Positions 8,698 to 10,049 of a stretch of DNA of 64,000 nucleotides are shown one piece after another. Below the pieces are notes generated by a model. That model made no database searches and was not told where the DNA came from. It saw only the letters and a program-made list of their open reading frames with translations. Made by a program: the position numbers and the translations under genes. The DNA lies in NCBI RefSeq assembly GCF_016026235.1, contig NZ_CP065613.1; one strand, given 5' to 3'. This stretch comes from Escherichia coli (GTDB taxonomy: Bacteria; Pseudomonadota; Gammaproteobacteria; Enterobacterales; Enterobacteriaceae). Position 1 is the stretch's first letter, and each line of letters opens with the position of its first letter.

Positions 8698-9371
8698 AGA
8701 GTAAAACTCATTAGGATTATCAGAATTCGGCCAATGCATTGCAAAAATGAAATACAAAGAGAGATGTGTGCAGGCACTTAGCCGCGAGGGGCATGGCGAA
8801 GCCATACAGAAAGCACCAGCATTCAGAACTCCTGTGAAAGCGGCATAGTGCCGCTGCTCAGGAGTTTTGTTATGACCCGTATCGTGCTGAACGTTGCCAC
8901 CCTATGATGCGATTAAAAAAACTCACCGTCGAGCCGATGATTGACGTCAATGCTATCGGATGATGCCGGGGGTGTTCCGGAAGGAATTCCTTGTTTCCCG
9001 AACTGTTACCAACAAAATTATAACGATGAGCAAGTAAAGACCGGTTGGTGGCAGTACTGACCGGTCTGTGATGGAAGATTAATTTCACCTTAAATCCTGG
9101 TGCTGTTAGGATGCTGACGTTTTTCGGCTACACCATTCAGATTATGCAAATAAATATCCCTGAATATAATATATTCATAGCACCCATAACTCATCCTGGG
9201 CGATAACTAAACCATTTTTGAGTAACAAATGAAACAACTGCAACGCTCTTATTATTTCTGGAAAACGTCTCGCAAAAACAAAACAACATGCAAAAATCCG
9301 CTTTCGTTAATTAATTTTCCGTCGTAATTTTCGCACATACATTAATGAGTAATATATGTAAGAGGGTGGCA

Positions 9372-9590
9372 ATGGCGATGAATACGGTTTTTCTTCATTT
9401 ATCAGAAGAGGCAATTAAACGGCTGAACAAGCTTCGGGGCTGGCGTAAGGTTTCACGATCTGCAATTTTACGCGAAGCGGTAGAGCAATATCTGGAACGT
9501 CAGCAATTCCCGGTGCGTAAAGCAAAGGGAGGCAGGCAAAAGGGGGAGGTAGTTGGTGTTGATGATCAGTGTAAGGAGCATAAGGAATGA
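9372..9590 (+). CDS. yiiE: ribbon-helix-helix (CopG/Arc/MetJ-like) small DNA-binding protein
   Basis: ORF 9345..9590; start chosen at MAMNTV after AGAGGG RBS; RHH-like segment LHLSEEAIKRLNKL...ILREAVEQYL. Confidence 0.75.
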   Translation: MAMNTVFLHLSEEAIKRLNKLRGWRKVSRSAILREAVEQYLERQQFPVRKAKGGRQKGEVVGVDDQCKEHKE

Positions 9591-9830
9591 CAAAAATTTT
9601 TCATTCTTGAATATAAAAAACAGATGCCCTTATTCTGGTATTAATACAAGGCTGTTTTACTTGAACTTATAATAACTGCAACTGTTACATCATATCTGGA
9701 AAACGCCTCGCAAAAATAAAAAATGATGCGTAAATGAGCTTTCTTTAAAGATTCGACAAGGGTACTTTTCTCTCCATAGATATCAAATGATATTGGTCAA
9801 ATATTTATGAACTCTCTGGCAGGTATTGAT

Positions 9831-10049
9831 ATGGGCAGAATTATACTCGATTTATCGAATGAGGTGATTAAGCAACTTGATGATCTTGAGGTGCAGCGTA
9901 ATCTTCCTCGTACGGAGCTATTACGGGAAGCGGTAGATCAATACTTGGTAAATCAATCGCAAACAGTAAGAACCAGTGCTTTTGGCATATGGCAAGGGCG
10001 TGAGGAAGATGGTGTCGAATACCAGCGTAAGCTGCGCGAGGAATGGTAA
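9831..10049 (+). CDS. yiiF: ribbon-helix-helix small DNA-binding protein, paralog of yiiE
   Basis: ORF 9807..10049; shares LREAV(E/D)QYL core with yiiE; start chosen at MGRII. Confidence 0.75.

Follow-up and report, generated by a model that had tools for sequence, protein, structure and literature searches.

The stretch of Escherichia coli DNA studied here (64,000 nt; NCBI RefSeq assembly GCF_016026235.1, contig NZ_CP065613.1; hereafter referred to as the window) includes the interval corresponding to E. coli fabY (yiiD)–fdhE, which holds two small genes, yiiE and yiiF. Both genes were preceded by a copy of a 22-bp element, and fragments of a toxin gene, vapC, were found downstream of yiiF. 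The principal features are as follows:

9257..9278, plus strand: 22-bp element, yiiE copy (B-E), tctggaaaacgTctcgcaaaaa
9372..9590, plus strand: yiiE, 72 aa, ribbon-helix-helix (RHH; CopG family) paralog of vapB with a degenerate C-terminal toxin-binding tail
9695..9716, plus strand: 22-bp element, yiiF copy (B-F), tctggaaaacgCctcgcaaaaa, invariant in 10 E. coli strains
9807..10049, plus strand: yiiF, 80 aa, predicted orphan VapB antitoxin (RHH) in which the conserved C-terminal toxin-binding region is kept
10049..10069, plus strand: 5′ stub of the vapC pseudogene, ATGGGAAAAAAT, overlapping the yiiF stop exactly as the start of an intact vapC does
11666..11761, plus strand: middle and 3′ remnants of the vapC pseudogene (NLIDVVVGKLAA, stop, LEVVTRNTRD..GVVTPYEL, stop)

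Tandem units containing yiiE and yiiF

The presence of nearly identical 22-mers before both genes, pointed out in an earlier note made from the sequence of this DNA, was confirmed: the copies at 9257–9278 and 9695–9716 differed by one base, and in most E. coli strains, including the K-12 lineage, the yiiE copy also reads CGC, so that the core 22-mers are identical there. Each element begins 112–115 nt before its gene. The degenerate pattern TGGAAAR-N3-CTCGCAAAA was found at two sites in the whole 64 kb (0.11 expected by chance), and both were the known 22-mers. These are enclosed by a direct repeat of 78 nt (9233–9310 and 9671–9748; 77% identity, spacing 438), and a second direct repeat, which is in frame, covers the 3′ coding ends of the genes (9535–9589 and 9991–10045; 71%). 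The best local alignment of the non-coding upstream regions scored 68, whereas 500 dinucleotide shuffles, used as the null, gave 20.0 ± 2.9 (maximum 36; z = 16.5); because the score lay so far above the shuffles, the upstream similarity is not an artefact of AT-richness, which the earlier note had named as the explanation that would undo its claim. Furthermore, the full units of approximately 450 bp could be aligned end to end (9150–9593 with 9594–10052), which supports the proposal that a gene was duplicated in tandem together with its upstream region.

The YiiE and YiiF proteins had an identity of 41% (E = 5e-13) and the common core LREAVEQYL/LREAVDQYL. The annotated start of yiiE is 9372 (72 aa, with AGAGGG in front) and not 9345. 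The assignment of both proteins to the RHH type held, for YiiE by the Pfam family RHH_1 and for YiiF and its ortholog by the solved structures 2K5J and 7BY2, and their antitoxin-type identity was likewise supported. The match of YiiE to PF01402 (RHH_1) reached 44.2 bits (cut-off 20.5, E = 1.5e-11), and that of YiiF, at 18.9 bits, was slightly below the same cut-off. Structure 2K5J was determined for Shigella YiiF (two chains, E = 1.3e-43), and a family profile search also matched the CopG structures 1B01 and 2CPG along with other CopG-family entries. The RHH fold of 2K5J and 7BY2 is taken by us from the depositors' names (7BY2_A is named 'CopG family transcriptional regulator').

Relationship of yiiF and yiiE to the vapBC module

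After 2K5J, the best PDB match of YiiF was chain A of 7BY2, Klebsiella pneumoniae VapB, over its full length (E = 4e-28). Exactly this protein is encoded within the fabY/hydrolase–fdhE interval, and the gene after it overlaps it and encodes a 127-aa PIN protein, 7BY2 chain B, 'Ribonuclease VapC' (E = 9e-81). The gene order fabY–(hydrolase)–vapB–overlapping PIN gene–fdhE was found in Klebsiella, Citrobacter and Pseudocitrobacter, and a scan of species-representative genomes yielded 39 further loci in about a dozen named genera, with a PIN gene after vapB in every inspected locus. Because of the sequence match, the fabY–fdhE synteny and the PIN gene that follows vapB elsewhere, yiiF is identified as the ortholog of vapB. 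Its product was aligned with the VapB proteins of eight other taxa, and the C-terminal toxin-binding region was conserved in it as in them.

A search downstream of yiiF homologs, proposed earlier as a check, thus revealed the PIN toxin gene vapC at the same site. Within E. coli, 57 of the 5,426 complete genomes (~1%) retained yiiE followed by a yiiF-type vapB and then by an intact vapC of 375 nt (E. coli VapC, WP_001129490.1); strain 2016C-3878 is an example with intact vapBC. The remark that no toxin-sized partner follows either gene is true of the window, in which no PIN-domain toxin gene overlaps the antitoxin gene and only vapC remnants were found; the puzzle that the remark raised is resolved by the decay of vapC, which that small fraction of genomes retains intact. 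As judged from sequence, the window holds a degenerate VapBC member consisting of an orphan antitoxin and a toxin pseudogene. The yiiE and yiiF ORFs (open reading frames) were both intact in about 3,800 of the 5,426 genomes, and truncated alleles were numerous in the protein database.

VapBC of Klebsiella pneumoniae (PDB 7BY2/7BY3) is a chromosomal type II toxin–antitoxin (TA) system in which the antitoxin is of the RHH type and the toxin is a PIN RNase. The locus in the window is similar to it in the position between fabY and fdhE and in the C-terminal motif WQ..EEDG.EYQR.LR.EW of YiiF, and the Klebsiella locus has the same 22-bp upstream element, extended −10 and start context. In contrast to Klebsiella, the toxin gene in the window is fragmented, the vapB promoter hexamers are mutated, and a divergent second copy, yiiE, lies upstream. 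Orphan (solitary) antitoxins left after toxin loss are a general phenomenon of TA evolution, and the locus resembles them in that an ORF is kept without a functional toxin, the constraint on the yiiE tail is relaxed and truncated alleles are many. Unlike the usual orphan antitoxins, the toxin-bearing state still segregates in the species (the above 57 genomes), and the orphan is tandemly duplicated. It should be noted that in Klebsiella spallanzanii (L033, 2501–2812) vapB and the final ~22 codons of vapC form one continuous reading frame (103-aa product), which constitutes an independent internal toxin deletion in another genus.

A tblastn search with VapC located C-terminal remnants at 11633–11758 of the window (E = 8e-6), and the alignment of 11666–11761 with an intact E. 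coli vapC revealed an internal deletion junction identical to that of strain M11957. The vapC pieces are separated by a bacterial interspersed mosaic element (BIME), the first repetitive extragenic palindrome (REP) of which is split by the insertion sequence (IS) IS1397:

10100..10117, no strand: left half of a REP (palindromic unit), IS-interrupted
10118..11549, minus strand: IS1397, IS3 family, 1432 bp, in the REP loop
11554..11633, no strand: right half of REP1 (11554–11569) and REP2 (11605–11633), together the BIME

A GAAC target duplication surrounds IS1397 (10114–10117 and 11550–11553). The neighboring IS had been taken for IS150, which was wrong, as the element is 98–99.9% identical to copies annotated as 'IS3-like element IS1397 family transposase' and lies inside a REP. 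REP sequences are the documented target of IS1397 (PMC1525189), and the present copy, a 1432-bp IS3-family element in a REP loop with a 4-bp GAAC duplication, has nothing unusual in comparison with the insertions described there. The Rfam search gave a near-threshold match to the small RNA (sRNA) ES036 (CssrF) at 11570–11612 (36.3 against 37.6 bits) and no other structured RNA match; ES036 was rejected as an sRNA gene and taken as BIME sequence because 11570–11612 covers the REP linker and only the first 8 nt of REP2. Approximately 30 nt to the left of the REP (10070–10099; caGattgctgacaacgtgc..ttgtt) recur to the left of the BIME downstream of ybiA (L208), and the motif that usually flanks this BIME was probably carried in along with it. 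Upstream of the duplicated units, an AT-rich islet contained an intact 614-aa ORF (6853–8697, plus strand) with no Pfam or NCBIfam match; in other E. coli, this DNA is annotated as a truncated hypothetical gene and a 'transposase' or is interrupted by IS1.

The homologs of YiiE were restricted to Escherichia (including E. whittamii) and Shigella. According to the alignment, the YiiE tail, GGRQKGEVVGVDDQCKEHKE, is unlike that of VapB/YiiF, i.e., the toxin-binding region is not conserved, and the TGA stop of yiiE falls where yiiF has its last codon, which is for Trp. In a comparison of 10 E. coli strains, variable columns made up 4% of the yiiE RHH codons 1–52 and 16% of the tail. Chimeric proteins (P0209 and P0220), in which the N-terminus comes from yiiE and the C-terminus from yiiF, were found in E. 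coli and E. albertii. The strains also vary in gene content: some E. coli carry yiiE alone, and in others two unrelated genes stand between a yiiE-like gene and yiiF. At two such E. coli loci (L003, 832–3380, and L140), the yiiE-like gene is followed by two minus-strand genes (hypothetical and DUF6708) and then by yiiF; the first unit there is a hybrid, in which the left flank is of the yiiF type, the right flank is of the yiiE type, and the two meet at a copy of the element that is mutated. The following feature precedes yiiE and may, as a candidate, serve as the YiiE operator and −10 region:

9335..9359, plus strand: inverted repeat ACATACATTA-ATGAG-TAATATATGT, upstream of the yiiE Shine–Dalgarno sequence, invariant in 10 E. 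coli strains

The locus is probably a decayed chromosomal vapBC module that has been partly duplicated. By this account, YiiF is VapB, an RHH antitoxin and presumed autorepressor, whose PIN toxin gene vapC decayed, and yiiE is a tandem copy of the ~450-bp unit (upstream region plus vapB) that kept a strongly conserved RHH domain and lost the toxin-binding tail. Recombination between the two copies still goes on, as is evident from the chimeric yiiE-N/yiiF-C genes and the hybrid units. Having its own Shine–Dalgarno sequence, a −10-like hexamer and the inverted repeat, yiiE more probably encodes a working DNA-binding protein. At the level of genes, the outcome is ordinary TA decay, which, as far as the literature was checked, was not found stated for yiiE/yiiF; any novelty would lie in the 22-bp element.

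Control region and the 22-bp element

The alignment of vapB upstream regions from many genera with both units of the window distinguished three conserved blocks. In block A, a LexA-box-like CTGT-N8-ACAG and a palindrome lie beside the start of a divergent Abhydrolase_3 gene; block B is the 22-bp element; and block C consists of TTGnnn ... TGATATACT-GGAGG-TATATATG, with the vapB promoter block reading TGATATACTGGAGGTATATATG. Blocks A and C are decayed in the yiiF unit:

9635..9650, plus strand: decayed LexA-box-like remnant CTGGTATTAATACAAG (block A), aligned with the CTGT-N8-ACAG before the divergent hydrolase gene
9767..9796, plus strand: decayed vapB promoter of yiiF, with TTTCTC for the −35 TTGCTC, TGATATTGG for the extended −10 TGATATACT, and GGAGG lost

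In Klebsiella, the transcription start site (TSS) of 'yiiF' was mapped 4 nt before the ATG with TGATATACT in front (PMC3415461, supplement), and we read block C as an extended −10 promoter from which a nearly leaderless mRNA would start. In comparison with the intact E. coli vapB alleles (L014 and L015), the −35, the −10 and GGAGG were mutated in every orphan yiiF allele of E. coli, that of the window among them; with these mutations, orphan yiiF would have no promoter of its own and would probably be weakly expressed and drifting. A scan of 9000–10200 for sigma70 promoters and terminators revealed no gene-strand site and fewer matches than in shuffles, and an E. coli K-12 TSS for yiiE or yiiF is absent from PMC3415461. 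As regards block A, most genera had a LexA box, CTGTATGGATATACAG, and a 14-bp palindrome (CAGGTTATAACCTG-like) directly upstream of the divergent Abhydrolase_3 gene, the box being located about 60 nt to the left of the 22-mer in L010, L019 and others, which suggests an SOS-regulated esterase beside vapBC in most genera.

The consensus of the element was CTGGAAAG-N3-CTCGCAAA, and the pattern TGGAAA[GA]-N3-CTCGCAAAA was found in about 33 of the 39 loci. The distance from the element to the extended −10 of vapB was 90–92 nt in 33 loci of about 12 named genera, despite the divergence of the intervening sequence. Because it is present at this fixed spacing from vapB across other genera, the element is older than the yiiE/yiiF duplication and an ancestral part of the vapBC upstream region. 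Its core can be split into two directly repeated 7-mers, CTGGAAA and CTCGCAA, which are identical at 5 of 7 positions and stand one helical turn apart (11-bp register) with the variable bases between them, a layout on which a protein could bind in tandem along a single DNA face.

The element does not appear to be a promoter, as had been considered earlier: the sole mapped TSS, that of Klebsiella, lies ~105 nt downstream of the first base of the element (i.e., the element is ~85–105 nt upstream of it) and is driven by the extended −10. A sigma54 (RpoN) promoter (profile TGGCACG-N4-TTGCW) would be suggested by TGG and GC spaced as −24/−12, i.e., by the GG-N10-GC geometry, with the variable positions 8–10 falling inside the N4 spacer. 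For comparison, a position weight matrix (PWM) was built from 50 intergenic sites bound in chromatin immunoprecipitation (ChIP), with which a known sigma54 site in fdoI (window position 13190, minus strand, CTGGCGCGAATTCTGCA), described as the intragenic binding site IS47 (Bonocora et al. 2015), was recovered at 17.9 bits. However, the element scored 1.7–6.8 bits against a minimum of 7.9 for real sites and was equalled by 88–639 17-mers of the window, and an A after TGG occurred in 0 of the 50 bound sites; moreover, yiiE and yiiF are not mentioned in the searched text and tables of the genome-wide ChIP-seq paper (PMC4591121). With a score below all 50 bound sites and no mention in those parts of the paper, the sigma54 promoter is effectively refuted and can be regarded as extremely improbable.

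The other role that had been suggested, that of an operator, keeps its standing as a candidate, and the differing beta-strands and the element-less vapBC loci described below argue against it. As an operator of the RHH proteins, the element would be bound by a dimer of dimers of VapB/YiiF or YiiE on the two 7-bp repeats and would act by distant or looping control. Arc and Mnt bind operators of ~21 bp. The size of the sub-sites and the 11-bp register suit an RHH tetramer, as for Arc, Mnt and CopG; the element always travels with an RHH gene at a fixed spacing, and no rival clear operator has been demonstrated. In length (~19–22 bp), in sub-sites placed 11 bp apart and in the variable middle, it is similar to the Arc/Mnt/CopG operators and the pho-box-type 7-4-7 direct-repeat sites; unlike Arc/Mnt/CopG-type operators, it lies far upstream of the TSS, and its sub-sites are direct rather than inverted. 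The distance from the mapped TSS is too great for simple occlusion, and copies occur beside the unrelated genes ybiA, hok, relB-parE and rayT. In addition, the outward-facing beta-strand residues are R-L-D in VapB/YiiF and T-F-H in YiiE, while the element is identical at 21–22 of 22 positions, and in Kosakonia, Cedecea and RIT693 the same VapB beta-strand and the promoter block C are kept, while the element is degenerate or absent. Since the DNA-reading residues differ with the same element and vapBC loci with the same strand have lost it, an operator function for YiiE, YiiF or VapB seems unlikely.

The search for other known sites gave no convincing match to marbox, IclR/AllR, LacI-family, FadR, PurR, CpxR, SdiA or Ada boxes when these were compared by eye. 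A leader peptide or small ORF across the element was rejected for both strands, since, as checked by eye over the aligned species, the frame and the starts were not conserved and variation was not confined to third positions. A phage origin was also rejected: the 81 pattern matches in viral contigs were within the range estimated for chance, and those examined in detail were in coding sequence. An 11-nt inverted match between the element and hydrolase codons 3–6 in C. youngae was treated as chance because the synonymous sites are not conserved in other species.

It is tentatively proposed, as a possibility that falls short of a probable one, that the element is a site at which a putative protein, neither YiiE nor YiiF, binds in tandem along one DNA face; as the longest conserved patch, it would also serve as a crossover point in rearrangements. 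Several points weigh against the explanation of the locus as a decayed, partly duplicated vapBC module with such a site. The direct-repeat reading of the element was made by eye, and the Klebsiella TSS was supported by 4 reads (PMC3415461, supplement). The ratio pN/pS of nonsynonymous to synonymous polymorphism was ~0.4–0.6 for both yiiE and yiiF on very few alleles, and the two genes may be either drifting or retained regulators. Finally, yiiE was up 2.5-fold with SlyA overexpression and lies in H-NS-bound DNA (PMC5797941), and a weak RpoS-holoenzyme peak in SELEX (systematic evolution of ligands by exponential enrichment) falls in the yiiD–yiiE spacer (PMC5493296); these data fit an expressed yiiE and are silent on the element.

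Copies of the element at other loci and the significance of the locus

Pseudocitrobacter, K. spallanzanii and some E. coli carry an inserted PF06296 RelE-like/helix-turn-helix (HTH) module with a copy of the element on each side of it. The bracketing copies were identical over 19 nt in Pseudocitrobacter and over a 28-nt stretch in K. spallanzanii, the sequences that flank them being unrelated on either side, and one E. coli locus (L002) contained three copies, one ahead of each module. Deletions of vapB and most of vapC that end inside the element were found in E. coli, E. whittamii and another genus (L002, L052 and L185), with the end-points at a 7–9-nt microhomology with the TRNT codons of vapC.

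Beyond the locus, a metagenome scan for the exact 19-mer yielded 65 contigs, about 50 of which were this locus or its deletion derivatives and six of which had chance matches inside long ORFs; the remaining, intergenic copies have an extra TTC prefix. Intergenic copies adjoin a Hok/Gef toxin gene (fdhF–yjcO), a RelB/ParE pair downstream of nrdG, and the dinG locus. A BLAST search against mislabelled 'plasmid' records gave 19–20-nt matches upstream of E. coli ybiA and rayT, the latter beside a BIME, and a 22/23 match was found in K. pneumoniae, 438 nt from the end of uspF. The copies outside the dinG locus are as follows:

L186, 1198–1635: hok copy
L194, 5870–6470: relB/parE copy
L207, 1497–1526: rayT copy
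L209, 1497–1526: uspF copy

In the E. coli dinG–ybiA region (L208, 1440–1548, and L210), an exact 20-nt match to the consensus is located 25 nt upstream of ybiA and ~45 nt beyond the dinG LexA box. The order dinG–LexA box–element mirrors the order hydrolase gene–LexA box–element at the vapB locus. On contig L168, identity with the dinG side continues as far as the 3′ edge of the element, after which unrelated AT-rich DNA takes the place of ybiA. Among enterics, ybiA is restricted to Escherichia; its nearest relatives outside the genus are ~70% identical, and the few named ones are planctomycetes.

The wider distribution of the element is regarded as real, although under-sampled, and fits either a shared regulator site or a cassette-exchange junction without discriminating between them. 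A joint claim can be made with considerable doubt, namely, that TTCTGGAAAG-N3-CTCGCAAA is a dispersed Enterobacteriaceae motif on the inner boundary of variable cassettes gained by horizontal transfer (vapBC, PF06296 RelE-like/HTH, relB-parE, hok and ybiA), being either a regulator site or an insertion/exchange sequence. It may often stand at a constant distance past the LexA box that belongs to a divergent SOS gene (dinG or Abhydrolase_3). If the orphan RHH proteins were the regulator of such a motif, this would explain their retention.

The stricter form of the exchange hypothesis, in which the element is a recombination or insertion junction that marks the boundaries of small gene cassettes (TA modules and others), seems rather doubtful. 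The identical copies bracketing the PF06296 modules, with three of them in E. coli L002, the deletion end-points inside the element, the crossover at the element in the hybrid units of L003 and L140, the dinG sequence common up to its 3′ edge and continued by ybiA or by the AT-rich insert of L168, and the copies next to the hok and relB-parE cassettes all speak for a junction. On the other hand, no recombinase gene is associated with the site, which, as inspected by eye, is non-palindromic and resembles neither an integron attC nor a dif site; the above microhomology accounts for the deletions, and any conserved patch would become a favoured crossover. Neither the strict promoter spacing, which is unexpected for a pure recombination site, nor the number of close copies of the yiiF-type sequence (only 1–4 per E. 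coli genome) agrees with it.

A further possibility is that yiiE and yiiF have been domesticated as stand-alone transcription factors, for which the dispersed 22-mers (dinG–ybiA, rayT and the uspF region) would be targets. The intact state of both ORFs in most of the genomes surveyed, the nearly invariant RHH domain of yiiE and the 19–20-nt motif matches at unlinked E. coli loci are consistent with this. The many truncated alleles in the protein database, the decayed promoter of yiiF and the conservation of the motif in genera with a complete vapBC that lack yiiE argue against it, and domestication of this kind appears improbable.

The analysis corrects the IS annotation beside yiiF to IS1397 and gives an evolutionary identity to two E. 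coli y-genes, namely, an orphan VapB and its degenerate tandem paralog within what is probably a decayed vapBC module. As the toxin-bearing ancestor still segregates in the species, toxin loss, promoter decay and the possible domestication of an antitoxin can be tested through natural alleles. The 22-bp motif, if it is a true regulator site or a cassette junction across TA families, would bear on the control or the movement of chromosomal TA systems.

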